The notes under the pieces: model-generated
Database searches by the model: none
Seen by the model: the letters and a program-made list of their open reading frames with translations, nothing else
Told to the model about the DNA's origin: nothing
Program-made: the position numbers and the translations under genes
Source of the DNA: a virus
Reading direction: 5' to 3' (one strand)
Length of the DNA: 64,000 nt
IMG/VR virus record: IMGVR_UViG_3300032288_003533
Coordinates: 12,233 to 76,232 of that record
Part shown: positions 2,893 through 35,466 of the stretch, one piece after another
Numbering within the stretch: the stretch's first letter is position 1
How the letters are laid out: each line of letters opens with the position of its first letter

Positions 2893-3459
2893 ATGGAAAA
2901 AGAAACATTAAAAAACATACTTGATTTTCTTAAACATAATGAGAATAGAAATATTCCATTTATGTGGAAATTAAAAAATAATGAACCATTCACAGATGAT
3001 GAATTACACATTAAAGGTGATTTGGTTTTAGAAGAATCAAATATAACATCCTTACCAGAAGGATTAAAAGTAGGGGGTAGTTTGAATTTAGCAAGTTGCA
3101 TAGATTTAAAATCATTACCAGACAATTTGAAAGTTGGTGAGAATTTGTCTTTATCTGAAACACGTTTTAGATTCTTACCAAAAGGCTTGGAAGTTGGGGG
3201 TAATTTGGATTTATATGCTTCACAAATAGACTCCTTACCAAAGGACTTGAAGGTTGGCGGGGATTTGAATATTGAAGGCACTTACATAGAATTATTACCA
3301 AGTGGCTTACAAGTTGGTGGTGATTTATATTTGAATGATAGTGATTTGCATCACAGCATAGATTATGATGATAGTGATGAATTAAGGGATATTGTAAAAA
3401 AAATGGTTGAACCTGGTTTTATTAAAGGTGAGGTAATTTTTGATGAGTATGATGATTGA
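2893..3459 (+). CDS. Capped LRR-like repeat protein A1 (5 repeats)
   Basis: MEKETLK N-cap, xxLPxGLxVGGxLxL repeats, MVEPGFIKG C-cap. Confidence 0.85.
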   Translation: MEKETLKNILDFLKHNENRNIPFMWKLKNNEPFTDDELHIKGDLVLEESNITSLPEGLKVGGSLNLASCIDLKSLPDNLKVGENLSLSETRFRFLPKGLEVGGNLDLYASQIDSLPKDLKVGGDLNIEGTYIELLPSGLQVGGDLYLNDSDLHHSIDYDDSDELRDIVKKMVEPGFIKGEVIFDEYDD

Positions 3460-3476
3460 TTTAAATTAAATATATT

Positions 3477-4022
3477 ATGGAAAAAGAAACAATAAAAAAC
3501 ATATTTGAATTTATTGAAAGAAAAGATAATAGAAAAATTCCATTTATGTGGAAATTAAAAAATAATGAACCAATAACAGAAGATGATTTGATTGTTAATG
3601 GTGATTTGGATTTGAGACCTAGTAGCATAGATTACATAGATATAGAATCATTACCAGAAGGATTAAAAGTTTCTGGTTGTTTAAATCTTATGGGTTCAGA
3701 TATGAAACTTTTACCAAAAGGCTTGGAAGTTGGTGGGTATTTGGATTTAAGTTATTCACTTATAAACTCATTACCAGAAGGTTTAAAAGTTGGTGGGAGT
3801 TTATCTTTATTTGATTGTGCATATATGACTTCACTGCCAGAAGGCTTGAAGGTTGGGGGTAATTTAGATTTAGGGGCTACAAATATAACATCATTACCAA
3901 GAGGGTTAAAAGTTGAGGGTTATATAGAGTTGAATGGTACAAAATTAACAGATTACTCAGATGATGAATTAAGAAAAATGGTCAAACCTGGATATATAAA
4001 AGGAAGAATAATTAAATTTTAA
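3477..4022 (+). CDS. Capped LRR-like repeat protein A2 (5 repeats)
   Basis: Same cap/repeat/cap architecture. Confidence 0.85.
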   Translation: MEKETIKNIFEFIERKDNRKIPFMWKLKNNEPITEDDLIVNGDLDLRPSSIDYIDIESLPEGLKVSGCLNLMGSDMKLLPKGLEVGGYLDLSYSLINSLPEGLKVGGSLSLFDCAYMTSLPEGLKVGGNLDLGATNITSLPRGLKVEGYIELNGTKLTDYSDDELRKMVKPGYIKGRIIKF

Positions 4023-4025
4023 TTA

Positions 4026-4505
4026 ATGGAAAAAGAAACACTAAAAAAGATATTTGATTTTCTTGAAAAGAATGATAATAAAAGAAAACCACTTATGTGG
4101 AAATTAAAAAACAATATACCAATAACAGAAAAAGATGATTTGATTGTTAAAGGTAGTTTGGATTTATCTAGTTCAAACATAACCTCACTACCAAAAGGTT
4201 TGGAAGTTAAAGGTGGTTTAAGTTTATATGAATCAGAAATAATCTCCTTACCAGAAGGCTTGAAGGTTGGGGGTGATTTAGATTTAAGAAATTCATATAT
4301 AGAAAGTTTACCAGAAGGATTGGAAGTTGGGGATGAATTGGATTTAGCATATACATACATAACATCATTACCAAAAGGCTTAAAAGTTGGGGGGCTTTTG
4401 ATTATAATTGAGAGTGATTTATTAAAATATTCTGATGAAGAAATAAGAAAAATGATTGAACCTGGGTATATTAAAAAGAAAATAGTTAGAGAATATTATA
4501 GATAA
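4026..4505 (+). CDS. Capped LRR-like repeat protein A3 (4 repeats)
   Basis: Same cap/repeat/cap architecture. Confidence 0.85.
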   Translation: MEKETLKKIFDFLEKNDNKRKPLMWKLKNNIPITEKDDLIVKGSLDLSSSNITSLPKGLEVKGGLSLYESEIISLPEGLKVGGDLDLRNSYIESLPEGLEVGDELDLAYTYITSLPKGLKVGGLLIIIESDLLKYSDEEIRKMIEPGYIKKKIVREYYR

Positions 4506-4529
4506 TTTACTATATTTGCATAAAAAAAC

Positions 4530-5327
4530 ATGGACAAAGAACTTTTAAAAGAAATATTATCAATCCCCTCCTATTCAGGCAAAGAAACAAAGCTGGTTGA
4601 TTTTATTACCAATTTTTTAAATACTAATGATATCAAATTCACAGTAGATGAGATGAAAAACATTTATTGTGTAAAAGGTGAAGCGGAGTATTATCCTTGT
4701 GTTGTAGCACACACAGATACTGTCCATAACAACACTTTTATAGATGTTAGGACTGAACTTAAACCAAACTCCAAAAGAGCCTTAAAAGAGGCTTATAAGG
4801 GTTATGATGCAAAAGGAAAACCAACAGGAATTGGTGGTGATGACAAGGCTGGAGTATTTGCTTGTCTTACCTTATTAAAGGAATTGCCAGTAATAAAAGC
4901 AGCCTTTTTTGTTTCAGAAGAAATTGGTTGCGTGGGATCACTAAAAGCTGATGCAAATTTTTTCCTAGATGTGGGTTATGCCATTCAATTTGATGCCCCC
5001 TTTGATTGGATGGTAAGTGAAATATCATCTGGGGTTAGATTATTTGATAGAGATAGTAAGTTCTTCACAAAGATAGATAAGGTATTAACAGAAAACACAA
5101 ACCCCCAATATCAATCACACCCATATACCGATATATTTGCCTTAAAGAAATTATTTGATTTTAGTTGTGTTAATATATCAATAGGATATTATGATTATCA
5201 CACAAAGGATGAATATGTTGTTTTAGAGGATGTGGAGAAAGGAATTAAAATGGGCAGAGAAATGATAGAAAGTTTGGGATGTGAAAAATATTACAAAAGA
5301 TACAAACCATTAAGAATATTAGGATAA
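4530..5327 (+). CDS. M28/M42-clan Zn metallopeptidase
   Basis: AHTD, GGDDK, SEEIG and late YHT metal-ligand motifs. TATATTTG element at 4511-4518. Confidence 0.8.
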   Translation: MDKELLKEILSIPSYSGKETKLVDFITNFLNTNDIKFTVDEMKNIYCVKGEAEYYPCVVAHTDTVHNNTFIDVRTELKPNSKRALKEAYKGYDAKGKPTGIGGDDKAGVFACLTLLKELPVIKAAFFVSEEIGCVGSLKADANFFLDVGYAIQFDAPFDWMVSEISSGVRLFDRDSKFFTKIDKVLTENTNPQYQSHPYTDIFALKKLFDFSCVNISIGYYDYHTKDEYVVLEDVEKGIKMGREMIESLGCEKYYKRYKPLRILG

Positions 5328-5329
5328 AA

Positions 5330-5360
5330 AGAAATGGGGGTTATTAGCCCCCATTTTTAT
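5330..5360. terminator. Bidirectional intrinsic terminator
   Basis: AAATGGGGG-TTATTAG-CCCCCATTT between convergent genes. Confidence 0.8.
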
Positions 5361-7361
5361 TTAGTTTAGAATAACATTTTCATCTTTTGCAGTTAATTGG
5401 TATTTGCCCCCTTCTTTTACTGCATCATTTAATACTTCATCAGAAATTAAGTCTTCAATTTTGTCTTGAATTGCTCGTTTAATTGGTCTAGCACCATAAG
5501 TTTCATCAAACCCAATTTTTGATATTAAATCAACAACACTATCATCATAAGTGAAACTGTATTTTGATTCTTTTAATCTATCAATCAATTTATCAAGTTC
5601 AATTCTTGTGATTTTCTTAACATTCTCATCATTTAGTGTATTGAATACAACTGTATCATCAATACGATTTAAGAATTCTGGGGAGAAAAACTTTTTAAGT
5701 TCAGCCATTAGCATAGATTTTTTTGCTTCTTCATTGCCATATTTTGAACTAGTGAAACTAATACCTGTGCCAAAGTCAGAGAATTTCTTGATTCCCAAGT
5801 TTGATGTTAGAATGATTATGGTATTTTTAAAGTTAATTGTTTTTCCCATAGCATCAGTAAGATGACCATCATCCAGAATTTGCAATAATAAATGGAATAC
5901 ATCTTTATGTGCTTTTTCTATTTCATCAAATAAGATAACAGAATATGGGTTGTTTTTAACTTTTTCAGTTAATTGGCCACCTTCATCATGTGATACATAT
6001 CCTGGGGGTGAACCAATCAATCTTGATATGGTGTGTTTTTCTTGGTATTCACTCATATCAACACGAATTAATGCCTTTTCATTACCAAACAATTGTTTTG
6101 CAAGTTGTTTTGCAAGATGTGTTTTTCCAACACCTGTGGATCCCAAACAAATAAAGCTACCAATTGGTCGGTTGGGGTCTTTTATGTTTAATCTATTTCT
6201 CTTAATTGCTTTAACAATTGAATCAACTGCTTGGTCTTGTCCAATAACATTATCTTTAATCTTTTTATCAATATTGATAAGTTTTTGCTTTTCATCAAGA
6301 TTTAACTGTTCAATTGGGATGTTTGTCATAATTGAAACAACAGAATAAACATCTTCTGAATCAATGGTTCTTTTATTTTTAATATTATCGTCTTCAAACT
6401 TTTTTGTTTCAGCCTCAAGTTTGTTCAATAATTTTAATTCCTTATCTCTAATTTCAGCAGCCAATTCATATTCTTGATTAATAACAACCCTTGTTTTTTC
6501 TTTTTTTAATTCTGCAATTTTTTCTTTTAACTTTTTAATTGATTCTGGAATTTTAACTTCAACTTGTTGTCTTGCTCCAACTTCATCAATAACATCAAAT
6601 CCCTTATCTGGGAATGCCCTATCTGTGATATATCTATCAGCCAATCTAACAGATAGTTCAATTATTTCATCACTATATATTGACTTATGAAATGATTCAT
6701 ATTTATCAATAGATTGTTTAATAATTTTTATTGTTTCACTAATTGATGGTTGGTCTAATTTAATTTTTTGAAATCTTCTTGCCAAAGCACCATCTTTTTC
6801 AATTGATTTTTTGTATTCATCAAGAGTTGTTGCACCAATACATTGAATATCTCCTGATGCCAATGCTGGTTTGAATATGTTTGCACCATCCATAGAATTT
6901 GAAGAATTACCAGAACCAATTAATGTGTGAATTTCATCAATAAAAACAATCACATTTGGATTTGATGTTAGTTCATCAATAATAACTTTCATTCTTTCTT
7001 CAAACTGACCCCTATATTTGGTTCCAGCAACAACTGATGTTAAATCCAAATTAACAATTCTTTTGTTCAGTAAATTTTGTGGACCTTCACCCCTTGAAAT
7101 CATTAAAGCAACTCCTTCAATTAAGTTAGTTTTACCACAACCAGGTTCACCTAGTATTAGGGGGTTATTCTTCTTACGCCTTGATAAGATTTGAGCCAAT
7201 CGCTTAACCTCTTTTTCTCTACCAATTGACATATCTAACTTCCCCATCTCAGCCAATTTAGATAAGTCTCTACTGAAATTATCTAAAACAGGTGTTTTTG
7301 AACCAGTAGTATTTTTCTTACCTCTGGTTGTTTTTTCATCATCAAAGAAATCAACGTTCAT
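5361..7361 (-). CDS. clpC: ClpC-like double AAA+ unfoldase lacking the N-terminal domain
   Basis: GEPGCGKT/FIDE and GSTGVGKT/LFDE Walker motifs, KYRG pore loop, UVR-like middle coil (QEYELAAEIRD), YGARP sensor 2. Confidence 0.85.
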   Translation of the reverse strand: MNVDFFDDEKTTRGKKNTTGSKTPVLDNFSRDLSKLAEMGKLDMSIGREKEVKRLAQILSRRKKNNPLILGEPGCGKTNLIEGVALMISRGEGPQNLLNKRIVNLDLTSVVAGTKYRGQFEERMKVIIDELTSNPNVIVFIDEIHTLIGSGNSSNSMDGANIFKPALASGDIQCIGATTLDEYKKSIEKDGALARRFQKIKLDQPSISETIKIIKQSIDKYESFHKSIYSDEIIELSVRLADRYITDRAFPDKGFDVIDEVGARQQVEVKIPESIKKLKEKIAELKKEKTRVVINQEYELAAEIRDKELKLLNKLEAETKKFEDDNIKNKRTIDSEDVYSVVSIMTNIPIEQLNLDEKQKLINIDKKIKDNVIGQDQAVDSIVKAIKRNRLNIKDPNRPIGSFICLGSTGVGKTHLAKQLAKQLFGNEKALIRVDMSEYQEKHTISRLIGSPPGYVSHDEGGQLTEKVKNNPYSVILFDEIEKAHKDVFHLLLQILDDGHLTDAMGKTINFKNTIIILTSNLGIKKFSDFGTGISFTSSKYGNEEAKKSMLMAELKKFFSPEFLNRIDDTVVFNTLNDENVKKITRIELDKLIDRLKESKYSFTYDDSVVDLISKIGFDETYGARPIKRAIQDKIEDLISDEVLNDAVKEGGKYQLTAKDENVILN

Positions 7362-7415
7362 ATCTTATTGTTTTTTTATAAATATGCTACAAATTTTATA
7401 CTAATCAAATAGTTT

Positions 7416-7518
7416 TGACAAATTGTCTTATAATTTCATTGTATTATGACAAATTGTCATATTATTATATAGATAACTGCCATTTTGTCATATAAAAATA
7501 TATTGGCATTAAATTTGA
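7416..7518 (+). promoter_or_regulatory. Three phased TGACAnnnTGTCA-like palindromes plus a sigma54-like -24/-12 element upstream of hsp20
   Basis: TGACAAATTGTCT at 7416, TGACAAATTGTCA at 7447, TGCCATTTTGTCA at 7478 (31-bp period); TTGGCATTAAATTTGA at 7503-7518. Confidence 0.65.
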
Positions 7519-7560
7519 CTTTCTCATAAAAAAAATAAACATTTATAAAAAATCAAAATT

Positions 7561-7953
7561 ATGAGAGAGAGAGATTTAATTAAATTATTCTTTAATGGGT
7601 ATCCATTTATTACATCATCTTCATCAAGTACAGGTGCTTTTGATAATTATTTAGATAATTATTTAGAAACTAACTACACTATTGATGAAACAAAAGATGG
7701 TGCTTATGTGTCCTTTGATGTACCTGGTTTCACCAGAGATAATCTTGAAATATCTATAGAAGATAGAGTGGTCAAAATTAGTGGTGAAAGGGTTGTCAAT
7801 AAGAAAGGTGAAGTTAAGAGAATACTTCATAAATACAAAATTGATAGCAACTTTAATGAATCAAACATTGAAGCAACAGTATCAAATGGTATTTTAACAT
7901 TATTCTTACCAAATTACATTGCTAAACCTAAAAAAACAATAACAATTAACTAA
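7561..7953 (+). CDS. Small heat-shock protein (Hsp20/alpha-crystallin)
   Basis: DVPGF..NLEISIE..VKISGER and [15 protein letters not shown] motifs. Confidence 0.9.
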
Positions 7954-8384
7954 TGACAAAAGTAAAAATTGAAACAGCAAAGGGAGTTATGATTGCTGAG
8001 TTATATGATAATGAAACCCCAATTACAGTTGATAACTTTAAGAAATTAATCAGCAAAGGATTTTATGATGGATTAAATTTCCATAGAGTTATCCCCAACT
8101 TTATGATTCAGGGGGGTTGCCCAAATGGGGTTGGAAATGGTGGTCCGGGGTATACTATTAAATGTGAGGTTACTGCTGATAAGCAATACCATGATAGAGG
8201 TGTATTGAGTATGGCACATGCTGGCAGAGATACTGGTGGATCACAATTCTTCATATGCCATAATAGGCAAGGTGTTGCTCATTTGGATGGAAATCATACA
8301 TGTTTTGGTAAAGTTGTTGATGGCTTGGATGTCATTGATTCAATTAGCCAGGGTGATTTAATAAATAAAATAACAATAATTTAA
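7953..8384 (+). CDS. Cyclophilin-type peptidyl-prolyl isomerase
   Basis: [44 protein letters not shown]. Confidence 0.95.
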
Positions 8385-8388
8385 AAAA

Positions 8389-18931: not shown

Positions 18932-18969
18932 AACAAAACATTTTATATATTTATTATATAAAATATAAT

Positions 18970-19671
18970 ATGAATAGTTTAAGAATACTAGAAGCAAATG
19001 AAATTGGTCATGGAATATTAATTGAGGCAGATGCTGGGTGGATTAATCCCAAAGACCAATTAAATATTAATTTAATACAAGAAAACAAGAAGTTAGATTA
19101 TAAGAACCCTTTTGAATTTTATGCTGTATTGCAAAAGCATGATGTACCAAATAGAAATGGTAGAACATACCCTGAAAAAATATTAAAAAGGGAGGCTGAA
19201 AGATACAAAAAAATTATTGAAAAGGGTTTATCTACTTCTGAATTAAATCACCCCGAATCATCCTTAATTGACTTAGATAGAGTTGCTCACTTAATAACAG
19301 ATATTTGGTGGGATAATAATATACTAATGGGCAAATTATTGTTATTAACTTCTCCTGGCTTCCATGAGAGGGGTATTGTATCAACCAAGGGTGATGTTGC
19401 CGCAAATCTAATGAGGCAAGGAGTAAGCCTAGGAATCAGTTCTAGGGGGGTTGGATCACTTAAAAAAGTTGGGGAGAAAAATGAGGTTCAAGATGATTTT
19501 GAATTGATTTGTTTTGATTTGGTTTCATCGCCATCAACGCCTGGGGCATACCTATTCTCAAATAAGGAAGATAGGCATAAGTATGATGAGAAATTGGAAG
19601 AAGAAAAGAAAATTGACCCATCAAATAATATATTAAAATTAATGAATAAACTTGATAGTTATTTAAAATGA
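18970..19671 (+). CDS. Prohead core protease (T4 gp21-like)
   Basis: NRNGRTY, ELNHP, LGISSRGVGS, FDLVSSPSTPGA. Confidence 0.93.
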   Translation: MNSLRILEANEIGHGILIEADAGWINPKDQLNINLIQENKKLDYKNPFEFYAVLQKHDVPNRNGRTYPEKILKREAERYKKIIEKGLSTSELNHPESSLIDLDRVAHLITDIWWDNNILMGKLLLLTSPGFHERGIVSTKGDVAANLMRQGVSLGISSRGVGSLKKVGEKNEVQDDFELICFDLVSSPSTPGAYLFSNKEDRHKYDEKLEEEKKIDPSNNILKLMNKLDSYLK

Positions 19672-20978
19672 AAAAAGAAACAATAAGAAAAATAATTGAT
19701 TTTATTGAAAATCAAGAAAAAAAAGCACCAACAATTAAAGGTTCTTTCTTATGGAAACTTGTGGTTCAGGAACCATTAACAAAAGAAGAGTTAAATCATA
19801 AAGGTAATTTGGATTTGACACATTCAACAATAACACAATTACCAAAAGGATTGAAAGTTGGGGGATATTTAAATTTAGGAGCAACAGAAATAGAATTTTT
19901 ACCAGAAGGATTGGAAGTTGGAGGTGGTTTATCTTTAGCATTTTCAAATATAAAATCCTTACCAAAAGGCTTGAAAGTTAGGGGGGATTTGAATTTAGAT
20001 AATACAAAAATAACTTCATTACCAGAAGGATTGAAAGTTGGGGGTGTTATATATGCAACAGATTCTAATCTACTTAATTTATTAGAAATACCAAAAAACA
20101 TAGAAACTGAAGGAATTATAACTAACACCAAATTATTACTTAATCCAAATTTAAAAATAAATAGGGGTTTGAATTTATCAAATTCAAAAATAACATCCTT
20201 ACCAAAAGGATTAAAAGTTAATGGTAATTTGATATTGAGTATTTCAAAAATAACAGAATTACCAAAAGGTTTGGAAGTTGGAGGTGATTTGGACTTAAAT
20301 AATTCAAAAATAACCTCATTACCAGAAGGATTGAAAGTTGGAGGTATGATTTATGCAAATATGTTTAATTTAGTAGAAATACCAAAAAATATAGAAACTA
20401 TAGGAATTATAACTAACACCAATGTACTACTTTCAAGTTTAACAATAAAAAATAACTTGTATTTAGCAGGTTCAAAAATAACCTCATTACCAAAAGGCTT
20501 GAAAGTTTATGGGAATATGAGTTTAGGGCAGAGTAAAATAAAAACATTACCAGAAGGGTTAGAAGTTGGTGGTTGGCTAAATATTTCTGATACTATGATA
20601 AGAACATTACCAAAAGGATTAAAAGTTGGTGGTTCTCTGGTTATATCTTATACAAGGATAGGAAAACTACCAAAAGGATTAAAAGTTGGGGGTATTATCT
20701 ATGCAGATAAAACTTATCTATCTAATATAGATGAAATACCAAAAGATGTAATAACTAGTGGAATTTTAACTCACAACAAATTAATAATTAATCCAAATTT
20801 ACCAATAAATAATGACTTAGATTTATCTAAGTCAACAATAAATTCATTACCAAAAGGATTAAAAGTTAATGGTAATTTAAATATTAAGAAATCAAGATTG
20901 GCAGTACATTCAGACAATGGTTTATTAGAAATGATTGGGGATGATGGCTATATAAAAGGTTCAATAATTAGATATTAA
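19668..20978 (+). CDS. Capped LRR-like repeat protein B1 (about 12 canonical repeats plus 3 variant modules)
   Basis: ATGA overlap with the protease stop; caps and repeats as in the family. Confidence 0.85.
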   Translation: MKKETIRKIIDFIENQEKKAPTIKGSFLWKLVVQEPLTKEELNHKGNLDLTHSTITQLPKGLKVGGYLNLGATEIEFLPEGLEVGGGLSLAFSNIKSLPKGLKVRGDLNLDNTKITSLPEGLKVGGVIYATDSNLLNLLEIPKNIETEGIITNTKLLLNPNLKINRGLNLSNSKITSLPKGLKVNGNLILSISKITELPKGLEVGGDLDLNNSKITSLPEGLKVGGMIYANMFNLVEIPKNIETIGIITNTNVLLSSLTIKNNLYLAGSKITSLPKGLKVYGNMSLGQSKIKTLPEGLEVGGWLNISDTMIRTLPKGLKVGGSLVISYTRIGKLPKGLKVGGIIYADKTYLSNIDEIPKDVITSGILTHNKLIINPNLPINNDLDLSKSTINSLPKGLKVNGNLNIKKSRLAVHSDNGLLEMIGDDGYIKGSIIRY

Positions 20979-21379
20979 TGGAAATAGCAACATTAAAAAA
21001 CATATTTAATTTCCTTGAAGGAAGTGAAAAAAAGTTCTCCATAAAATGGAAAATGATGAATAAAATCCCCTTTACTAAAGAACAATTACACGTCAAAGGT
21101 GATTTGGATTTACAAGGGGAAGACATACAACAATTGCCAGATGGGCTATATGTTAAACGTAATTTATTGTTAAATGCCACACCAATAAAAAAATTGCCAA
21201 AAGGTTTAAGAGTTGGTGGCAATTTGGAATTACAAGATTGTGAAAATTTAAAATCCCTACCAAAAGATTTAAAAGTTCGTGGGGGTATATGGCTTGCTGG
21301 TACACCATTAGGAAGAATGTCAGATGAGAAAATATTAAACATAGTAAAACCAGATGGTTATATAGGTAAAATATATTAA
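20978..21379 (+). CDS. Capped LRR-like repeat protein B2 (3 repeats)
   Basis: Family architecture. Confidence 0.85.
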   Translation: MEIATLKNIFNFLEGSEKKFSIKWKMMNKIPFTKEQLHVKGDLDLQGEDIQQLPDGLYVKRNLLLNATPIKKLPKGLRVGGNLELQDCENLKSLPKDLKVRGGIWLAGTPLGRMSDEKILNIVKPDGYIGKIY

Positions 21380-21380: not shown

Positions 21381-21971
21381 ATGAAAGAAGAAACATTAGG
21401 AAAGATATTTGAATTTATCAAAGAAAACAGCAAACAAAATTTACCATTATTTTGGAAAATGAAAAATAATATACCATTAACAGAAGAAGATTTGACTGTT
21501 AAAGGTGATTTAAATTTACATAATTCAAAAATAACATCCTTACCAGATGGATTAAAAGTTGAGGGTGAATTGGATTTATCATATTCAAATATAAAATCAT
21601 TACCAAAAGGTTTAATAGTTAATAGCCACTTAATATTAGAAGAATCAGAAATACGTTCTTTACCAGAAGGTTTAAAAGTTGGGGGCAATTTAATGTTAGC
21701 AAGTTGTGAATATATTTTTTCATTACCAAAAGGATTAAAAGTTGGACATATTTTAGATTTAACAAAATCAAATATAAAAACATTACCAGAAGGATTGGAG
21801 GTTGGACATAGTTTATGGCTATTTGGATGTTGGGGTTTAACCTCATTACCAAAAGGCTTGAAAGTTGGGGGTGACTTAAATATTTATAAAACAAAATTAG
21901 AAGAATATTCAGATGATGAATTAAGAGAAATGATTAAACCAGGATTTATAAAAGGTTCAATAAATAGATAA
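21381..21971 (+). CDS. Capped LRR-like repeat protein B3 (6 repeats)
   Basis: Family architecture. Confidence 0.85.
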   Translation: MKEETLGKIFEFIKENSKQNLPLFWKMKNNIPLTEEDLTVKGDLNLHNSKITSLPDGLKVEGELDLSYSNIKSLPKGLIVNSHLILEESEIRSLPEGLKVGGNLMLASCEYIFSLPKGLKVGHILDLTKSNIKTLPEGLEVGHSLWLFGCWGLTSLPKGLKVGGDLNIYKTKLEEYSDDELREMIKPGFIKGSINR

Positions 21972-21973: not shown

Positions 21974-22564
21974 ATGGAAAAAGAAACATTAAAAAGAATA
22001 TTTGATTTTATTGAAGGGAATGAAGGGCATAAAAAACCATTATTTTGGAAATTGAAAAATAATATACCATTAACAGAAGAAGATTTAACTGTTAAAGGTG
22101 ATTTAAATTTAGAAAATTCAAAAATAACATCCTTACCAGATGGTTTGAAAGTTGAGGGTGATTTGATGTTAACCTTTTCAAAAATAACCTCATTACCAGA
22201 TAATTTACAAGTTGGGGGTCATTTAAACATAGTTGGTTGTGATGCCATAAACTCATTACCAAAAGGATTAAAAGTTGGCGACAGTATTCAATTATCCCCA
22301 AAACGAATAGTTTCCATTGGGGAAGGATTGTTTGTTGGTGGGGATTTAAATTTATTTAATAGCCAAATAAAATCATTACCCCAAGGAGTTAAAATTGGGG
22401 GGGAGTTAGGTTTATCCTTTACAAAACTAGAAACATTACCAAAAGGTTTGATAGTTAAAGGTGGTTTGGAGATTGCTGGAACACCATTAGAAAACTATTC
22501 AAATAAAGAATTAAGAGATATGGTTAAACCTGGTGTTATAAAAGGTCCAATAATTAGAGATTAG
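21974..22564 (+). CDS. Capped LRR-like repeat protein B4 (6 repeats)
   Basis: Family architecture. Confidence 0.85.
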   Translation: MEKETLKRIFDFIEGNEGHKKPLFWKLKNNIPLTEEDLTVKGDLNLENSKITSLPDGLKVEGDLMLTFSKITSLPDNLQVGGHLNIVGCDAINSLPKGLKVGDSIQLSPKRIVSIGEGLFVGGDLNLFNSQIKSLPQGVKIGGELGLSFTKLETLPKGLIVKGGLEIAGTPLENYSNKELRDMVKPGVIKGPIIRD

Positions 22565-22566: not shown

Positions 22567-23790
22567 ATGAAAATAGAAACATTAAAAAGAATATTTGATT
22601 TTATTGAAAATAAAGAAAACAAAAAACATAAAGCCAAAGCAACTTTAAAGTGGAAGTTGTTTTTTAATGAACCATTAACAAAAGATGATTTGATTGTTAA
22701 TGGAAATTTGGATTTGGCAAATTCAAAAATAACATCTTTACCTGAAGGATTGGAAATTAAGGGTACTTTGGATTTAAGAAATTGCACAAGTTTAACATCA
22801 TTACCACAAGGATTGAAAGTTGGGGGTAATTTATATTTAATTAGTTCAAAAATAACATCTTTGCCTGAAGGATTGGAAATTAAGGGTACTTTGGATTTAA
22901 GAAATTGCACAAGTTTAACATCATTACCAGAAGGATTAGAAGTTGGTGGTGATTTAAATTTATCTAATTGCACAAGTTTAACATCATTACCACAAGGATT
23001 GAAAGTTAAAGGAGATTTAGATTTATATGGTTGTAAAAACTTAAAATACTTACCAATAGGATTGATAGTTGTTGGTGATATAAATTTACAATACTCAACA
23101 ATAACAACCTTACCAGAAGGCTTAAAAGTTGGTGGTGATTTGAATTTATATAATTGCAAAAGTTTAAAATCCCTACCAAAAGTATTGAAAGTTGGTGGTT
23201 TTTTAAATTTAAACAAATGCACAAGTTTAACATCATTACCAGAAGGATTAGAAGTTGGGGGTACATTATATTTAAAGAATTGTTCCAAATTAAAATCATT
23301 ACCAATAGGGTTGAAAATTGGGGAGGCTTTGCAATTGAATGATACAAATATAACTACTCTCCCAAAAGATTTGAAATTTGTTACTGATTTGGATTTATCA
23401 GGTTCTAAAATAATGTCATTACCAGATAATTTACATGTTAGGGGTAGGTTAGATTTGGCTTTTTGCGAAAATTTAACTTCATTACCAACTGGATTAAAAG
23501 TTGATGGTGATTTAATATTAACCTTTGCAAAAATAACCTCATTACCAGATAATTTACAAGTTGGCAAATATTTGGATTTGGGTAATACAAAAATAACTTC
23601 ACTACCTAAAGGGTTAAAAGTTGGTAGTAGATTGAATATAAGTGGTACACAAATAACCTCATTACCAAAAGGACTAAAAGTTGGAGAAAATTTACTTATA
23701 GTGAACACAAATTTAAAAAAATATACTGATGAGGAATTAAGAGAAATGGTTAAGCCTGGATTTATAAAAGGTGAAATATATAGAGGATAA
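22567..23790 (+). CDS. Capped LRR-like repeat protein B5 (16 repeats)
   Basis: Family architecture; internal duplication with a 123-nt period. Confidence 0.85.
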   Translation: MKIETLKRIFDFIENKENKKHKAKATLKWKLFFNEPLTKDDLIVNGNLDLANSKITSLPEGLEIKGTLDLRNCTSLTSLPQGLKVGGNLYLISSKITSLPEGLEIKGTLDLRNCTSLTSLPEGLEVGGDLNLSNCTSLTSLPQGLKVKGDLDLYGCKNLKYLPIGLIVVGDINLQYSTITTLPEGLKVGGDLNLYNCKSLKSLPKVLKVGGFLNLNKCTSLTSLPEGLEVGGTLYLKNCSKLKSLPIGLKIGEALQLNDTNITTLPKDLKFVTDLDLSGSKIMSLPDNLHVRGRLDLAFCENLTSLPTGLKVDGDLILTFAKITSLPDNLQVGKYLDLGNTKITSLPKGLKVGSRLNISGTQITSLPKGLKVGENLLIVNTNLKKYTDEELREMVKPGFIKGEIYRG

Positions 23791-24203: not shown

Positions 24204-25889
24204 ATGCAACCAGAAAAAAATTTAGTAGAAGAAGCACTAATTCAAATGAAACAAATTGAAGATGTGCTTGCAGAAAACGCAAAAGGAATACTTTCTTCAA
24301 CAATGAAGGAAGAAATCGAAGAGTTGGTTAAAGAATCTTTAAATGAACAAGAAGATATTGAAGATGATGAGACTGATTTAGATATGGATGATAATGAATC
24401 TGAGTTAGATATGGAAGATGATATGGATATGGAAGATGATATGGAAGATGAGGATGAAATGGATATGGAAGATGACATAGAAGATGAGGATGAAATGGAT
24501 ATGGATGATGATGTGATTGATATGAGGGGTGCATCACAAAGTGAACTTTTAAAAGTGTTTAAAGCAATGGATGATGAAGATGGTATAATTATATCAAAAG
24601 ATGGTAATGATATTTCATTAACTGATGAAGATTCTGATTCTGAATATTTAATAAAACTAGGTGAACAAATAGAAGATTTTGGTTCTGGTATGGATGATGA
24701 TATGGAATATGATGCTCAAGAACATGGTATGAGATATTTTAATGATGACGATGAAGAAGGTGATTTTGAACCTTTTGATGACGAAAATGAAGATGTTGAT
24801 ATGGACTATGCTATGAGCAAAAGACTTGGTTTGAAATATTTTAATGACAACGAAGATGATGATGATATGGAATTTGATGATCAAGATTATCAACCAATAG
24901 AAGAGGAAGATTATGATACTCAATCAACAATTGATAAAATTTTTGAAAAAACAAATAAAAATAACAATATTATTTATGAAATAGAAATGGAAGACGAAGA
25001 AGAGTTTGATATGGAAGATGAAGAAGAGTTTGATATGGAAGATGAAGAAGAGTTTGATATGGATATGGAAGATGATGAAGATTTTGATTGTTCTAATTTT
25101 AGCACTTCAGATTATTTAGCCAAAAACCCAAAAGCAACAATTTCAGATGTATATGATTATTTAAAAGAAAAAGGTTGTTTAAGTGGTAGTGCTGATAGTA
25201 TTGGGGAAGATTATAATTATTTAGGTGAAGCTAAAAAGGCTTCCAAATTTAAGTACAAGATGCCAAAAAATGGGTTTAATGAAAAAATGAAAGAGGGTCC
25301 TAAAAAAATGGGAACAGGTAAAGCCAAGTTTGATTATGACAAATCTGGTGCAAATGTTGGTGGTAAAATGAAAAAAGTATCAACTAGCAAAAAACAAGAA
25401 ACAAAAGAAGCATCAAGAACTTATGGTATGGGAAGTAAAGCTGGTAGAGGTCTAAAGAAAGGCATAACACCAAATAGAAATTTACATTTAGAAGCTCTGG
25501 AAAACCAAGTTTTAGAATTAAAACAAAAGAATAATGATTATAAAAAATCATTAAATATTTTCAGAGAGAAACTAAACGATGTTGCAATTTTCAATGCTAA
25601 TTTGGCATATGCAACAAGATTGTTCACAGAACACTCAACTACTAAAAAAGAAAAAATAAACATTTTAAGGAGATTTGATAATGTACAAACATTACAAGAA
25701 TCAAAAAACTTATATTCAACTATAAATAATGAGTTGTCAAAAGATTCAAAATCACCTTTAAGTGAATCTGTTAATCGTAAAATATCAAATGTTGCATCAA
25801 CAGGTTCATCTGCTAACTTGATTGAATCAAAAACTTATGAAAATCCTCAATTTTTGAGGATGAAGGATTTGATGGGTAAATTAGGTTAA
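24204..25889 (+). CDS. Prohead scaffold/core protein (gp22-like), highly acidic
   Basis: Immediately precedes the capsid gene; D/E/M-rich tracts; C-terminal coiled coil. Confidence 0.7.
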   Translation: MQPEKNLVEEALIQMKQIEDVLAENAKGILSSTMKEEIEELVKESLNEQEDIEDDETDLDMDDNESELDMEDDMDMEDDMEDEDEMDMEDDIEDEDEMDMDDDVIDMRGASQSELLKVFKAMDDEDGIIISKDGNDISLTDEDSDSEYLIKLGEQIEDFGSGMDDDMEYDAQEHGMRYFNDDDEEGDFEPFDDENEDVDMDYAMSKRLGLKYFNDNEDDDDMEFDDQDYQPIEEEDYDTQSTIDKIFEKTNKNNNIIYEIEMEDEEEFDMEDEEEFDMEDEEEFDMDMEDDEDFDCSNFSTSDYLAKNPKATISDVYDYLKEKGCLSGSADSIGEDYNYLGEAKKASKFKYKMPKNGFNEKMKEGPKKMGTGKAKFDYDKSGANVGGKMKKVSTSKKQETKEASRTYGMGSKAGRGLKKGITPNRNLHLEALENQVLELKQKNNDYKKSLNIFREKLNDVAIFNANLAYATRLFTEHSTTKKEKINILRRFDNVQTLQESKNLYSTINNELSKDSKSPLSESVNRKISNVASTGSSANLIESKTYENPQFLRMKDLMGKLG

Positions 25890-29410: not shown

Positions 29411-29421
29411 ATTTTAATACT

Positions 29422-29835: not shown

Positions 29836-29849
29836 AGTTTTTTTTATTA

Positions 29850-29881: not shown

Positions 29882-29887
29882 TTACAT

Positions 29888-30436: not shown

Positions 30437-30966
30437 TATCTAATTATATTATTTATATATCCAGGATTAACCATTTGCCTTAATTCCTCAGTTGAATATT
30501 TTGTTAATGGTGTATTTTTAATAAACAAACGACCCCCAACTTTCAACCCTTTTGGTAATGATGTTATATTTGAATGTTTCAAATCCAAAAATCTCCCAAC
30601 TTTTAATCCTTCTGGTAGTGAAGTTATATTTGCACAATCAAATAAAGATAAACTCCCACCAACTTTCAACCCTTTTGGTAATGATGTTATATTTGAATAT
30701 CCCAAATCCAAAAACCCCCCAACTTCTAATCCTTCTGGTAATGATTGTATATTTTTACAACCATATAAACTTAAATTAGCCTCAACTTTCAATCCATCTG
30801 GTAATGATTCAATATCTGTTTTTGTTAAATCCAAATCCCCTTTAACAATCAAATCATCTTTTTCTGTTATTGGTATATTGTTTTGTAATTTCCACATAAG
30901 TGGTGCATTATGCTCACCATTTTCTTCAAGAAAATCAAATATCTTTTTTAGTGTTTCTTTTTCCAT
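30436..30966 (-). CDS. Capped LRR-like repeat protein C2 (5 repeats)
   Basis: Family architecture; mosaic of segments found in A2, A3 and D2. Confidence 0.85.
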   Translation of the reverse strand: MEKETLKKIFDFLEENGEHNAPLMWKLQNNIPITEKDDLIVKGDLDLTKTDIESLPDGLKVEANLSLYGCKNIQSLPEGLEVGGFLDLGYSNITSLPKGLKVGGSLSLFDCANITSLPEGLKVGRFLDLKHSNITSLPKGLKVGGRLFIKNTPLTKYSTEELRQMVNPGYINNIIR

Positions 30967-31613
30967 TATCTTTCTATTTTTCCAAGTATAAATCCTGGTT
31001 TAACCATATCTCTTAATTCCTTATCTGAAAATTTTGCTAACCCAGACTCGTCAATGGCTAAATTACCATAAACCTCCAACCCTTTTGGTAATGAAGTTAA
31101 ATTTTTGCAACGCATTAAATTTAACAATCTATTAACTTTTAATTCTTTTGGTAAAAATTCTATCTCTGAATCCTCCAAAGATAATATACCAACTTCCATT
31201 CCTTCTGGTAATGATTCCAAATATGGGGTAGTATTTAAATTTAATTCACCTTCAATTTTCAATCCTTCTGGTAATGATTGTATTTGTGTATATGATAAAT
31301 CCAAATCTAATTTAACTTTTAATCTTTTTGGTAATTTTCTTATTTCTGTATAATTTAAAACTAAATGTCCCCCAACTTCCAATCCTTCTGGCAATGATTT
31401 AATATCTGAATTTTGTAAAAACAAATCACCTTCAACTTTCAATCCTTCTGGCAATTCTTCTATCTCTAAATCTGATAAATTCAAATCACCTTTAACATGT
31501 AAATCATCTTCTGTTAATGGAAAACCATTTGACCATTTCCACCTAAGTGGCGTATTCCTATTATCCTTCTTTTCAAGGAAATTAAATATCTTTTTTAGTG
31601 TTTCTTTTTCCAT
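30966..31613 (-). CDS. Capped LRR-like repeat protein C1 (7 repeats)
   Basis: Family architecture. Confidence 0.85.
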   Translation of the reverse strand: MEKETLKKIFNFLEKKDNRNTPLRWKWSNGFPLTEDDLHVKGDLNLSDLEIEELPEGLKVEGDLFLQNSDIKSLPEGLEVGGHLVLNYTEIRKLPKRLKVKLDLDLSYTQIQSLPEGLKIEGELNLNTTPYLESLPEGMEVGILSLEDSEIEFLPKELKVNRLLNLMRCKNLTSLPKGLEVYGNLAIDESGLAKFSDKELRDMVKPGFILGKIER

Positions 31614-31616
31614 TAT

Positions 31617-32039
31617 CTATCCTTTCTTCCATTTGCCCCCCAATTTCTTATAACGTTTTGCTGCTGCACCATTACAATATGCGCTTGGGCATACTTTATA
31701 CCTTGACCTTGCCCAACTCAAACATTGACTCCATAACTTGGGATTTGTTGGTTTATTCTTTTTTTCTTTTGCTTCTGTTATGTTTTGGTTATCTCTGTTT
31801 TCAAATTCATTCATCATAAAATCAAAAACTTGATCCAAGTTTTCTTTTGCAACTGTCACATGGTCATCAGCCCAATCATGTCCATTATTCAATAATTCAT
31901 TAATTTCATCAGGTTGAAGTTCAAGCAATAATTCACATTGTCTTTTAATTTGTTTTAAGTTTCCAAAAAACATATAATTTTCTGTTGCTTGCTCATTTAT
32001 TGCATTCTTAACAATTTTTTTAATTACTGGATGTATCAT
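31617..32039 (-). CDS. Hypothetical phage protein with basic C-terminal PTNPKLW...PSAY...YKKLGGKW domain
   Basis: ORF with late-type motif upstream; C-terminal motif recalled from other large phages. Confidence 0.6.
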   Translation of the reverse strand: MIHPVIKKIVKNAINEQATENYMFFGNLKQIKRQCELLLELQPDEINELLNNGHDWADDHVTVAKENLDQVFDFMMNEFENRDNQNITEAKEKKNKPTNPKLWSQCLSWARSRYKVCPSAYCNGAAAKRYKKLGGKWKKG

Positions 32040-32177
32040 ATCTTATTTTTTATATAAATATCATTATTCTTTATTTTGATTATGGCTCTCATATTTTGAT
32101 TTTAAGAGGCTTTTTGTTTTAACCTATTACTATGTCATCTTTATTAAAATATGCTGTTGTGGTTAAATTGTGTGTGG

Positions 32178-32717
32178 TTATATCCTAATTATTCCTTGTA
32201 TATAACCAGGCTTAACCATTTCTCTTAATTCTTCATTAGTAAATTTGGCTAAATTATGTTTATTATCTATATTTAAATATCCTTTAACTATTAGTCCTTT
32301 TGGTAATCTATTTATTGGTGTGTTCATTATTATTAACCAAGTATTAATCACTAACCCTTCTGGTAGTGAAGTTACTTTTGAATTTTGTAAATATAAAGAA
32401 GTACCAATTTTAATATCATCTGGTATTTTTTTTATATTAGAGTATGATAAATCCAAAATAACACCAACTTTCAATCCTTTTGGTAATTCTTCTAATTTTG
32501 AAAATCTAGTAATCATATTGCCTTTAACTTCCAAATTATCTGGCAATGATTTTAAATTTGAATCTGATAAATCCAAATCACCATTAACAACTAAATCTTC
32601 TTTTGTTAGGGGTTCACCAAAATTTAATTTCCAAATAAAGTTATCTCTATTTTTATGTTTTTTGTTTTCATTCTTCTGAAGAAAATCAAATATTTTTTTT
32701 ATTGTTTCTTTTTCCAT
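32178..32717 (-). CDS. Capped LRR-like repeat protein D6 (5 repeats)
   Basis: Family architecture. Confidence 0.85.
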   Translation of the reverse strand: MEKETIKKIFDFLQKNENKKHKNRDNFIWKLNFGEPLTKEDLVVNGDLDLSDSNLKSLPDNLEVKGNMITRFSKLEELPKGLKVGVILDLSYSNIKKIPDDIKIGTSLYLQNSKVTSLPEGLVINTWLIIMNTPINRLPKGLIVKGYLNIDNKHNLAKFTNEELREMVKPGYIQGIIRI

Positions 32718-33325
32718 TATCTAATTATTTGCTCCTTTATAAATCCAGGTTTAACCATATTTCTTAATTCTTCATCAGAAAATTTTACTAATGGTGATCC
32801 ACTTATAATTAAATTCCCCCTAACTTTCAACCCTTTTGGTAATGATGTTAAACTTGTGCAATTTTCTAAATACAAATCACGACCAACTTCCAATCCTTCT
32901 GGCAAAGATGTTAAACTTGTGCAATTTTCTAAATCTAAATTATGCGCAACTTTCAATCCTTTTGGTAAAGATATTAAATTTGTTGAATTTTCTAAATATA
33001 AAGATGCTCCAAGTTCTAATCCTCTTGGCAGTGAAATTAAATCTTCACAACCTTCTAAATCTAAACGACCCCCAACTTTTAAGTTATCAGGTAATGATTT
33101 AATAGATGAATAATTTAAAATCAAATAACCACCAACTTTCAACCCATCTGGTAATGAGGTTATTTTTGAATATGATAAATCCAAATTACCTTTTACATTT
33201 AACTCTTCTTCTGTTATTGGTTCATCAAATTTTAATTTCCAAATAATGCTATCCCTATCTTTATGTTTTTTATTTTCTTCCTTTTCAAGAAAATCAAGTA
33301 TATTTTTTATTGTTTCTTTTTCCAT
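32717..33325 (-). CDS. Capped LRR-like repeat protein D5 (6 repeats)
   Basis: Family architecture. Confidence 0.85.
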   Translation of the reverse strand: MEKETIKNILDFLEKEENKKHKDRDSIIWKLKFDEPITEEELNVKGNLDLSYSKITSLPDGLKVGGYLILNYSSIKSLPDNLKVGGRLDLEGCEDLISLPRGLELGASLYLENSTNLISLPKGLKVAHNLDLENCTSLTSLPEGLEVGRDLYLENCTSLTSLPKGLKVRGNLIISGSPLVKFSDEELRNMVKPGFIKEQIIR

Positions 33326-33804
33326 TATCTTTCTATATTTCCTTTTATATAACCATCTGGTTTGACCATTTCTCTTATTTTTTCATCTGAAAGTTTTGCT
33401 AATGGAGTGTTTACAATATTTAAATCACATTTAACTTTTAAACCTTTTGGTAATGTTTCTATATCTGAATATGATAAATCCAGATTACGACCAACATATA
33501 AATCACCTGGCAAGGATTTAAAACGGGTCCATTCAAAATTCAAATCACCCTCAACAAATAATTTTTCTGGGAATGTTTTTAAACTTGAGAACCGAAAATC
33601 AGCATCTCCTATAACTTTTAACCCTTTTGGTAAATGTTGTATATTTAAGCCAGATATATCCAAATCACCTCTAACAATTAAATCTTCTTTTATTGATGGG
33701 TCATTAAACATAAATTTCCACCTTAAAGTTCCTTTGTCTTTATGTTTTTTATTATCTTCTTTTTCAATAAATTCAAGTATATTTTTTAGTGTTTCTATTT
33801 CCAT
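33325..33804 (-). CDS. Capped LRR-like repeat protein D4 (4 repeats)
   Basis: Family architecture. Confidence 0.85.
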   Translation of the reverse strand: MEIETLKNILEFIEKEDNKKHKDKGTLRWKFMFNDPSIKEDLIVRGDLDISGLNIQHLPKGLKVIGDADFRFSSLKTFPEKLFVEGDLNFEWTRFKSLPGDLYVGRNLDLSYSDIETLPKGLKVKCDLNIVNTPLAKLSDEKIREMVKPDGYIKGNIER

Positions 33805-34274
33805 TATCTAATTATATTTCCTTTAAATGAACCATTATTTAAATTTTTATTTCTTCTTATTTCATCATCTGTATATTTTTTGGCAAGGAAGGATTCTCCT
33901 ATATATAAATTACCACCAACATATAAATTTTTTGGAATTTCTTCAATATCTGAATGTCTGAAAAATAAATCACCCCCAACATATAAATTGTCTGGTAATG
34001 ATTCTATATTTGTATGTGATAAGTTAAAACTATCCTTAACATATAACCCTTCTGGTAATGATTCTATTAGTGAACCCAATAGCCACAATTTACCTTCAAC
34101 TCTCATCCCATCAGGTAATGAGGTTACAGTTGTAAATTCCAAATTCAAATTGCCTTTTATATTTAAATCCTCTTTTGTTAGTTCATTATTTACCCATTTC
34201 CATAAAAATGGTGTTTTGATATCATCATTTTCTTCAAGGAATTCAAATATTTTTTTTATTGTTTCTTTTTCCAT
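33804..34274 (-). CDS. Capped LRR-like repeat protein D3 (4 repeats, divergent C-cap)
   Basis: Family architecture. Confidence 0.85.
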   Translation of the reverse strand: MEKETIKKIFEFLEENDDIKTPFLWKWVNNELTKEDLNIKGNLNLEFTTVTSLPDGMRVEGKLWLLGSLIESLPEGLYVKDSFNLSHTNIESLPDNLYVGGDLFFRHSDIEEIPKNLYVGGNLYIGESFLAKKYTDDEIRRNKNLNNGSFKGNIIR

Positions 34275-34981
34275 TATCTAACTATTTTTCCTTTTATAAA
34301 TCCAGGTTGAATCATCTTTCTTAATCTATAATTACTAATTTCATCTAAATGGGAAAGATTCAACATTATAGATCCATAAACTTTCAACCCTTTTGGTAAT
34401 GAGGTTAAATCTGTTAGTCTTAAATCCAAATCTCCCCCAACTTTCAATCCTTCAGGTAATGATTGTATATTTTTACAACCAAATAACACCAAATCTTTCC
34501 TAACTTCAAGTCCTTCTGGTAATGAAGTTATTTTTGTATTATTTAAAACTAAATGCCCTCCAACTTTCAATCCTTCTGGTAATGAAGTTATTTTTGTATC
34601 ATTTAAATACAAATCCCTACCAACTTTCAATCCTTTTGGTAGGAAGGTTATATCTGTATTAGATGACAACAAATTACCACCAACTTCCAATCCTTCTGGT
34701 AATGAAGTTATTTTTGTTGACCCTAAATTTAAATCACCACCAACTTTCAAACCTTCTGGCAATGAGGTTATTTTTGATTTTCTTACATCAAAATTACCAC
34801 CAACTTTTAATCCTTCTGGTAATGAGGTTATTGTTGCTCCATAAAACCACAAATTACCTATAACATCTAAATCTTCTTTGGTTATTGGCTTATTATTTAA
34901 TATTTTCCATTTAAATGGTGCTCTATGTTCTCCTTTCTCTTCAAGGAATTCAAATATTCTTTTTAATGTTTCTTTTTCCAT
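34274..34981 (-). CDS. Capped LRR-like repeat protein D2 (8 repeats)
   Basis: Family architecture; clear 60-nt DNA periodicity. Confidence 0.85.
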   Translation of the reverse strand: MEKETLKRIFEFLEEKGEHRAPFKWKILNNKPITKEDLDVIGNLWFYGATITSLPEGLKVGGNFDVRKSKITSLPEGLKVGGDLNLGSTKITSLPEGLEVGGNLLSSNTDITFLPKGLKVGRDLYLNDTKITSLPEGLKVGGHLVLNNTKITSLPEGLEVRKDLVLFGCKNIQSLPEGLKVGGDLDLRLTDLTSLPKGLKVYGSIMLNLSHLDEISNYRLRKMIQPGFIKGKIVR

Positions 34982-35466
34982 TATCTAACTATTTTTCCTT
35001 TTATATAACCATCTGAACCAATCATCTTTAATAAAACAGAATCTGAAAGTTTTGCCAATGGTGTTTTTATAAGATATAAATTTTCTTCAACTTTCAACCC
35101 TTCTGGTAATGATGTTAAACTTGTGCAATTTTCTAAATATAAATAATCCCCAACTTCCAATCCTTCTGGCAATGATGTTAAACTTGTGCAATTTTCTAAA
35201 GATAACTTCCCCCCAACTTTTAACCCTTTTGGTAAGGATGTTAAATTTGTGCAATTATATAAATTTAAATAATCTTTAATTTCCAATCCTTCTGGTAATG
35301 ATGTTATTTTTAAATTTGCCAAATTTAAATTATCTACAATCAAATCATCTTTTGTTAATGGTTCATTGAAAAATAATTTCCATCTTAAAGTTCCCTTGTT
35401 TTTATTTTTTTTGTTTTCTTTATCTTCAAGAAAATCAAATATTTTTTTTAATGTTTTATTTTCCAT
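34981..35466 (-). CDS. Capped LRR-like repeat protein D1 (4 repeats)
   Basis: Family architecture. Confidence 0.85.
   Translation of the reverse strand: MENKTLKKIFDFLEDKENKKNKNKGTLRWKLFFNEPLTKDDLIVDNLNLANLKITSLPEGLEIKDYLNLYNCTNLTSLPKGLKVGGKLSLENCTSLTSLPEGLEVGDYLYLENCTSLTSLPEGLKVEENLYLIKTPLAKLSDSVLLKMIGSDGYIKGKIVR

Follow-up and report, generated by a model that had tools for sequence, protein, structure and literature searches.

FlrP of Vibrio alginolyticus (PDB 8z5u, 8z5w and 8z60), a small leucine-rich repeat (LRR) protein of ~180 residues that acts as a periplasmic spacer on the Vibrio flagellar rod (bioRxiv 10.64898/2025.12.04.692373), is the nearest solved relative of a family of proteins encoded by an uncultured phage. 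Here we describe this family in a 64,000-nt window (positions 12,233-76,232) of the 76-kb viral contig IMGVR_UViG_3300032288_003533, where 17 intact small LRR paralogues are organized in four arrays, A (3 genes), B (5), C (3) and D (6). The paralogues differ from each other mainly on one surface of a predicted solenoid, carry a common N-terminal helix and appear to be expressed with head genes, and we tentatively read them as a repertoire of binders made together with the parts of the virion.

The phage proteins share with FlrP a 20-residue unit (LPxGLxVxGxLxL...), of which FlrP provides a solved β-solenoid; the match has an E value of 5e-30 in phmmer and, in Foldseek, a template modelling (TM) score of 0.83 with a root-mean-square deviation of 2.3 Å and 32% identity. 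However, FlrP is exported by the Sec pathway (signal peptide M1-A19), periplasmic and single-copy, whereas the phage proteins lack a signal peptide and belong to a family of dozens. Moreover, FlrP has an N-terminal head and a C-terminal tail of its own, and the alignment covers the repeats only, leaving the caps and the leader of the phage proteins without a counterpart.

Other described systems resemble the locus in different respects. In phage T4, N-terminal propeptides of 10-20 residues load diverse proteins into the prohead and are removed after a glutamate by the protease gp21, and SPN3US paralogues have identical N-termini in common (PMC5694885). As in the T4 internal proteins, a short conserved N-terminal helix is here placed on otherwise divergent small proteins encoded in polymorphic gene clusters, which are apparently made with head proteins by a phage that has a gp21-type prohead protease just upstream of array B. 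In contrast to T4, the payloads have one fold, the leader misfits the (L/I)xE(Q/A) sites of the phage, the proteins are not uniformly basic, and we infer rather than observe their presence in the virion. The DUF7941 ‘fibre cloud’ of Goslar (PMC13742148) likewise joins a conserved virion-docking module to varied binding domains, including LRR and β-helix domains, that are proposed to serve host recognition; there the docking domain is globular and specific to chimalliviruses, whereas the element that would dock here is a 14-residue helix, and there is no homology between the two. Repeat families and recombining LRR clusters of eukaryotic giant viruses (the ‘genomic accordion’, PMC13359090) also contain dozens of tandem paralogues, evolve by duplication, loss and recombination and have lineage-specific contents, but the family described here belongs to a bacteriophage, consists of very small proteins (133-436 aa), has no recognisable adaptor domain such as an F-box and appears to be co-regulated with virion genes. 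Effectors of the NEL type (SlrP, SspH1/2 and IpaH) use short bacterial LRRs as target-recognition modules and have similar folds; their NCBIfam models matched the phage proteins (to 2e-16) at scores far below the cut-offs, and the phage proteins end in a short C-cap instead of a NEL E3-ligase domain and are not secretion substrates. Finally, the original prediction, made by a model from the DNA alone, compared the genes with the variable lymphocyte receptors (VLRs) of lampreys, which in lampreys and hagfish are LRR solenoids whose ends are constant and whose concave face varies. Beyond a weak fold match this comparison holds as an analogy only: the phage proteins have no Cys-knot caps (LRRNT/LRRCT), their genes are complete in the germline and apparently all expressed together, and there is neither somatic assembly nor machinery for assembly or hypermutation.

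Seventeen intact paralogues with a variable repeat surface

The existence of 17 intact paralogues occupying about 11 kb, without signal peptide or catalytic domain, had been proposed from the letters and a list of open reading frames (ORFs), and it was confirmed on each count. An ORF check recovered all 17 genes at exactly the predicted coordinates (Table 1), and a profile made from them retrieved exactly those 17 among all six-frame ORFs of the contig, with no LRR fragments or pseudogenes. Their summed length is 10,734 nt, or 16.8% of the window. The isoelectric points (pI) of the proteins span 4.4 to 9.5. No signal peptide or transmembrane segment was found in the LRR proteins, whose N-termini are hydrophilic (MEKETLKK...), nor was a catalytic domain detected when they were examined.

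Using the LPxGL motifs as anchors, 108 repeats were counted in the 17 proteins (about 105 had been estimated), with 3 to 16 in each and a spacing of 20 or 21 residues. Internal units comprise 57 of 20 residues and 28 of 21 residues, and 26 of the latter have a cysteine at position 16. Per-position entropy was at most 1.3 bits at the scaffold positions L1, P2, G4, L5, V7, L11, L13, S/T/C16 and I/L18, whereas at positions 10, 12, 14, 15 and 17 it was 3.0-3.5 bits for units of 20 residues and 2.5-3.1 bits for those of 21. As had been anticipated, the scaffold is therefore near-invariant and the differences between paralogues cluster on the xLxLxxSx strand and the ascending loop. The 108 tandem units agree with the length (20-29 residues) and the LxxLxLxx(N/C/S/T)xL-type core that characterize the LRR superfamily, with L11, L13, S/T/C16 and I/L18 near-invariant.

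AlphaFold2 modelled D2 (predicted local distance difference test score (pLDDT) 93.6, predicted TM score (pTM) 0.85) and B1 (pLDDT 87.8) as regular solenoids with a short strand every 20 residues. The top structural matches in Foldseek were all LRR proteins, the best being PDB 8z5u chain 0, and after FlrP both Foldseek and phmmer matched the phage proteins to the LRR domains of SspH1, IpaH and SlrP. Profile libraries gave weaker signals. In Pfam, B5 passed one model (LRR_EndoS, 28.7 bits against a cut-off of 27.9) while the other paralogues were sub-threshold or unmatched, and in NCBIfam the LRR regions of SlrP (2e-16), XopAC, XopL and SspH2 were matched, all far under the curated cut-offs. Together, the models and the FlrP match bear out the expected fold, and the proteins are predicted to be short-repeat, bacterial-type LRR solenoids. 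The B1 subfamily contains an additional insert unit of 23+37 residues (IPKN..EGI.TN...) that is modelled within one continuous solenoid; such blocks are present three times here and in one of six relatives (L061), and once in the other five (L039, L053, L057, L058 and L062).

Both ends of the proteins are conserved. The C-cap, ~25 residues at the end of the protein, was found by pattern in 15 of the 17 paralogues and in variant form in the remaining two (g1 and g15), in agreement with the original prediction. The N-terminal motif is present in all 17 as predicted, but the models divide what had been described as a single N-cap into two parts, namely a conserved amphipathic helix (residues ~3-15) followed by a Lys/Asn/Glu-rich linker of variable length, and a structural cap that begins at the helix of the WK motif. 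Both caps are helical and free of cysteines. In the models of D2 and B1 the leader helix has a pLDDT of 52-76 and the linker falls below 50 in B1, whereas the remainder of the protein exceeds 90. Because confidence is low for the helix and the linker and the well-defined cap starts only at the WK helix, the leader seems to be a flexibly tethered helix that is not rigidly built into the solenoid.

The arrays are apparently co-expressed with morphogenesis genes

The contig encodes a T4-type large terminase, a portal, a gp21-type prohead protease and a gp23-type capsid protein. Its completeness was estimated at 24% by CheckV, and it represents about a quarter of a roughly 300-kb T4-like phage. 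Array B is placed between the prohead protease and a putative scaffold, and array D is coupled to the 500-aa gene that heads its operon by a one-base overlap, with AGATAATGG forming the junctions within arrays C and D. Because stops and starts overlap in this way, the members of one array are expected to be translated together.

Of 94 genes, 21 have an 8-mer, ATATTTAT, at a distance of 18-33 nt upstream (17 found versus 1.9 expected). It precedes the terminase (TerL), the gene just downstream of the portal, the prohead protease that leads array B and the scaffold, as well as gene A1 and the genes that lead the operons of arrays C and D, and it also stands ahead of the corresponding genes in a 270-kb relative. 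When reverse-complemented, ATATTTAT(A/T) gives the octamer TATAAATA of T4 late promoters. It therefore seems that the four arrays are all co-transcribed with morphogenesis genes and that their translation is coupled, and since they share this promoter-like element with the terminase, protease and scaffold, the whole LRR mixture would be made alongside the virion parts.

The family is maintained across a phage lineage

Related IMG/VR contigs bear the same arrays. The 270-kb relative (~90% complete) has 41 LRR genes in 9 loci, amounting to 21.9 kb or 8.1% of its genome. Its arrays beside the protease, the M20 peptidase and the 500-aa gene occupy the same places as in the window and contain 3, 2 and 6 genes, compared with 5, 3 and 6 here, and array C is missing. 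Across the lineage the arrays range from 2 to 10 genes at conserved sites, one of them always occupies the interval between prohead protease and scaffold, and the B1 type is kept as the first gene directly after the protease. The expectation of a large phage-borne family whose array content differs between relatives was therefore correct. Genes bearing the leader adjoin protease, portal or major capsid protein (MCP) genes in at least 13 diverse short contigs as well as in the 270-kb genome, whereas homologues without the leader are found in different contexts, in other phages and in bacteria, as single genes or as small sets of 1-4 per locus.

The short form with leader and caps is abundant in metagenomes (2,044 matches), while cellular genomes yielded 5 matches among ~185,000 species, none of them with the leader or the C-cap. 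UniProt has a few members, automatically named ‘Leucine-rich repeat [uncultured Caudovirales phage]’. Among deposited phages the sole homologue is gene 0047 of Edwardsiella phage Edno5, which has no leader and belongs to the early accessory region, where it is flanked by the CI repressor and exo/recT genes. The repeat type itself is widespread, an exhaustive profile search returning 10,469 cluster representatives at E ≤ 0.001, and the top matches are mostly long multidomain proteins aligned over the repeat region only. Metagenomic fusions of the repeat type include PcfJ-like (PF14284) and DnaJ domains (P0062, P0064, P0136 and P0138) and several unassigned regions; they have neither the phage leader nor the caps and show no common theme.

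Array contents turn over faster than the core genome

To follow the genes through the lineage, orthologues were compared at two distances. In a closer relative (median synonymous divergence, dS, of core genes 0.35), 12 of the 17 genes have orthologues with at least 70% identity and the array sizes differ. In the 270-kb relative (core dS ~1.0), orthologues remain for only two (B4 and D6); the best matches of the other 15 genes share ~20% of face residues, versus 19% for unrelated paralogues within the window, whereas the core structural genes are all retained at 72-93% identity. Surviving orthologues have a median ratio of non-synonymous to synonymous divergence (ω) of 0.55 versus 0.13 for core genes, and a dS of 0.11-0.17 versus 0.35-1.0. 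Low dS combined with high ω points to recent exchange of cassettes between phages, in addition to relaxed or diversifying selection.

Exact tracts of 36-46 nt are common to genes of different arrays on opposite strands, and some of these tracts cross variable positions, a pattern that shows recombination between arrays. No reverse transcriptase (RVT_1) was found in this contig, in a 113-kb relative or in the ~90%-complete 270-kb relative, although positive controls matched. The shared tracts and the lack of a reverse transcriptase indicate that ordinary recombination, together with gene duplication and loss, renews the family.

Selection was estimated by class of position from pooled Nei-Gojobori counts for 12 orthologue pairs, where counts are small and recombination may bias the values. 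ω was 0.17 for the buried scaffold, 0.64 for the predicted binding face, 0.40 for other repeat positions and 0.57-0.98 for the leader and caps. Variation is thus not spread evenly over buried and exposed sites, the buried positions being spared. Positive selection on the predicted binding face was not detected in the 12 pairs, where no class exceeded an ω of 1. The idea that variation would mark the ligand face was likewise not supported between orthologues, as the value for the face is not set apart from that for the caps.

The leader helix and a possible role in head targeting

Several other proteins of the phage begin in a manner reminiscent of T4 propeptides. At least nine otherwise unrelated proteins, the putative scaffold included, open with helical leaders whose last residues are (L/I)xEQ, such as LKEQ (residue 14), INEQ (residue 16) and LNEQ (residue 48 of the putative scaffold); they are found at the gene starts 12651, 24204, 31617 and 40740 and in five genes within the 12 kb upstream of the window. 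The MCP has a plausible protease site at residue 60, between INE and A. Judged by their sequences, the (L/I)xEQ leaders look like the actual prohead-protease propeptides of the phage and may mark packaged or core proteins.

A cleavable leader of the T4 type was likewise considered for the LRR proteins and rejected, because their leader ends misfit the apparent (L/I)-x-E-(Q/A) sites; the idea of a docking helix alone was retained. A common docking role would be the simplest reason for conserving a helix on a flexible tether, as the models depict it. A search of a language-model atlas with residues 1-45 returned only sub-threshold viral hypothetical proteins.

A candidate repertoire of head-associated binders and its alternatives

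We assign a probability of about 0.4 to the reading that the family is a germline repertoire of small LRR binders that is made with virion parts, shares a docking helix and is most plausibly carried in or on the head. According to this model, the proteins would be made in the cytosol, each solenoid being closed by the WK-helix N-cap and the C-cap and displaying a strand and ascending-loop surface that differs from paralogue to paralogue. The whole mixture would be synthesized late from the promoter-like element common to the head genes, and the tethered helix would dock every paralogue onto one common partner, for which a component of head assembly is the most plausible candidate. Every virion would in this way be loaded with an assortment of binders, either inside the head, to be delivered with the DNA, or on the head surface, and their variable faces would bind to different molecules of the host. 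Renewal of the repertoire would occur through duplication, loss, change of repeat number, gene conversion and cassette exchange, with no programmed mutator. A more specific version, in which every particle carries dozens of LRR binders through one docking helix as an injected polyvalent anti-defence arsenal or as a polyvalent adhesive coat of the capsid, we consider less likely than not. If it were true, it would constitute a heritable, recombining binder repertoire in a bacterial virus, renewed by cassette exchange between co-circulating phages.

That the genes form a library of binders was already part of the original prediction, and the LRR solenoids, the variable strand and loop face, the size of the phage-borne family and its differing content in relatives all agree with it, whereas selection specific to the face did not emerge. 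The prediction did not include the apparent co-regulation with head genes, the place beside the prohead protease across the lineage or the rapid turnover with exchange of cassettes. Further observations weigh against carriage of such a repertoire by the virion. In 14 of the 17 paralogues the leader closes with F-(L/I)-E, and the next residue is E, K, N, G, D or R; 57 of the 72 leader-bearing members of the family show this ending, and the other three paralogues lack the glutamate at the leader end. The leader was not found on a non-LRR payload in ~1 Mb of related loci, and the pI range of 4.4-9.5 is unlike that of the uniformly basic T4 internal proteins. Given the misfit of the leader end, the want of other payloads and this pI range, cleavage of the T4 internal-protein type appears doubtful. 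Non-structural genes (a ClpC-like ATPase and peptidases) have the upstream motif as well, so that it is no proof of late or structural expression, several arrays of the 270-kb relative sit among genes without known function rather than by recognisable structural genes, and ω neither exceeds 1 nor singles out the binding face.

The proteins could instead be cytoplasmic effectors that never enter the virion, acting as counter-defence inhibitors, as host-takeover factors or as adaptors that feed a phage ClpC/ClpP-type protease, in which last case the conserved helix would be the docking element. We regard this as a real possibility and as the main rival. It would suit proteins without signal peptide or transmembrane segment, and array A has a ClpC-like AAA+ ATPase, an M20 peptidase and a tmRNA as neighbours, an arrangement kept in the 270-kb relative, although the link to ClpC is one of adjacency alone. 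High ω, gain and loss of genes and exchange of cassettes are typical of host-interaction genes, and both the early accessory location of the Edno5 homologue and the arrays of the relative that lie away from recognisable structural genes point in the same direction. However, throughout the lineage one array forms part of the head operon, where its translation is coupled to that of the prohead protease, and the upstream motif of morphogenesis genes is common to all arrays. Counter-defence is usually required at the start of infection, so that late synthesis would serve it only if the product were packaged, and a search of known defence and anti-defence families with PADLOC gave no match.

An ordinary structural or assembly role, as a spacer, ruler or chaperone of head or tail comparable to FlrP, would make the differences between paralogues neutral drift at exposed positions. 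The nearest solved relative is indeed a structural spacer, the place of B1 after the protease is conserved, and orthologue replacements fall over all exposed positions with no face bias and an ω below 1. We nevertheless think such a role improbable: for essential parts one would expect neither arrays of anywhere between 2 and 10 genes nor the loss of an entire array, 15 of the 17 orthologues are lost at a distance where the core structural genes are all kept, repeat number and pI range widely (3 to 16 and 4.4 to 9.5, respectively), and the caps are unlike those of FlrP and come without a signal peptide. Programmed diversification, whether by somatic assembly of cassettes as in lamprey VLRs or by targeted hypermutation of the diversity-generating retroelement (DGR) type, might be suspected from the stereotyped, cassette-like gene junctions and from the exact tracts between arrays, yet it is highly improbable. 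Ordinary homologous recombination between repeats accounts for the shared tracts, and all 17 genes are complete with their own start, stop and caps, with no partial donor cassettes. The lack of a reverse transcriptase in this contig and the two relatives speaks strongly against diversification of the DGR type.

Significance

The fold and the repeat type are already known. In the searchable literature we found no description of a binder family in a phage that is dozens strong, linked to head genes and turning over by cassette exchange. Families of repeat-protein binders expanded into many paralogues typify giant eukaryotic viruses and host immune gene clusters, and in phages none was found in that literature. 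The lineage spends 8% of a near-complete genome, and 17% of the window, on one family whose turnover is far faster than that of the core genome. Should the proteins prove to be carried by the virion, they would represent a new kind of device for multi-target delivery or adhesion, as well as a natural collection of stable binding scaffolds of very small size (130-240 aa); should their action be confined to the cell, they would probably form a large untapped set of inhibitors or adaptors directed at host proteins. Either way, the family serves as a marker for a widespread group of uncultured jumbo phages and makes accordion-type evolution tractable in a phage.

Feature coordinates and neighbouring genes

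Table 1. Positions of the LRR genes, operon-heading genes and promoter-like motifs in the window (aa, amino acids)
Feature	Position	Strand	Remarks
LRR gene A1	2893..3459	+	188 aa, 5 repeats, pI 4.5
LRR gene A2	3477..4022	+	181 aa; 36-nt exact tract in common with C2
LRR gene A3	4026..4505	+	159 aa; 42- and 46-nt exact tracts in common with C2
LRR gene B1	19668..20978	+	436 aa, 15 units including three 23+37-residue insert blocks; first after protease, conserved; modelled
LRR gene B2	20978..21379	+	133 aa, 3 repeats
LRR gene B3	21381..21971	+	196 aa
LRR gene B4	21974..22564	+	196 aa; orthologue in 270-kb relative (80% aa identity, dS 0.16, ω 0.66)
LRR gene B5	22567..23790	+	407 aa, 16 repeats, 8 Cys; match to SlrP LRR region (2e-16)
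LRR gene C3	29888..30436	-	182 aa
LRR gene C2	30436..30966	-	176 aa; mosaic with A2, A3 and D2
LRR gene C1	30966..31613	-	215 aa
LRR gene D6	32178..32717	-	179 aa; orthologue in 270-kb relative (78% aa identity, dS 0.17, ω 0.72)
LRR gene D5	32717..33325	-	202 aa
LRR gene D4	33325..33804	-	159 aa
LRR gene D3	33804..34274	-	156 aa; divergent C-cap
LRR gene D2	34274..34981	-	235 aa, 8 repeats; modelled; FlrP match (E 5e-30)
LRR gene D1	34981..35466	-	161 aa; start overlaps stop of upstream 500-aa gene
Prohead protease	18970..19671	+	Peptidase_S77, T4 gp21 type, E 3.7e-23; stop overlaps B1 start (ATGA)
140-aa gene heading array C operon	31617..32039	-	(L/I)xEQ-type leader
500-aa gene heading array D operon	35466..36968	-	conserved, without family match
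Promoter-like motif ATATTTAT/TATTTATA, array A	about 2868-2876	+	24 nt upstream of array A
Promoter-like motif, protease/array B operon	18947..18954	+	upstream of prohead protease
Promoter-like motif, array C operon	32054-32061	-	ahead of 140-aa gene
Promoter-like motif, array D operon	36980-36987	-	ahead of 500-aa gene

Array A is adjoined by the ClpC-like ATPase, which has two AAA+ domains (phrog_4871, E 4e-228), and by a peptidase of the M20/M42 type (window 4530-7361 and first 12 kb of the contig). A phage tmRNA was identified at 2311-2732 on the minus strand as a full-length match to Rfam RF00023 (87.1 bits), while ARAGORN reported no tmRNA or tRNA in the window.

The putative scaffold or core protein downstream of array B (24204-25889, plus strand, 561 aa) matched no family. 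It has a 49-residue N-terminal helix that is invariant, Asp/Glu/Met repeats of extremely low complexity over ~280 residues, a basic stretch and a C-terminus that is helical and conserved.

Two adjacent 500-aa genes (35466-38489, minus strand) lie between array D and a weakly tape-measure-like 681-aa gene. They had no match in PHROG, Pfam or the PDB, are 65-93% conserved in relatives and probably encode parts of the tail or baseplate.

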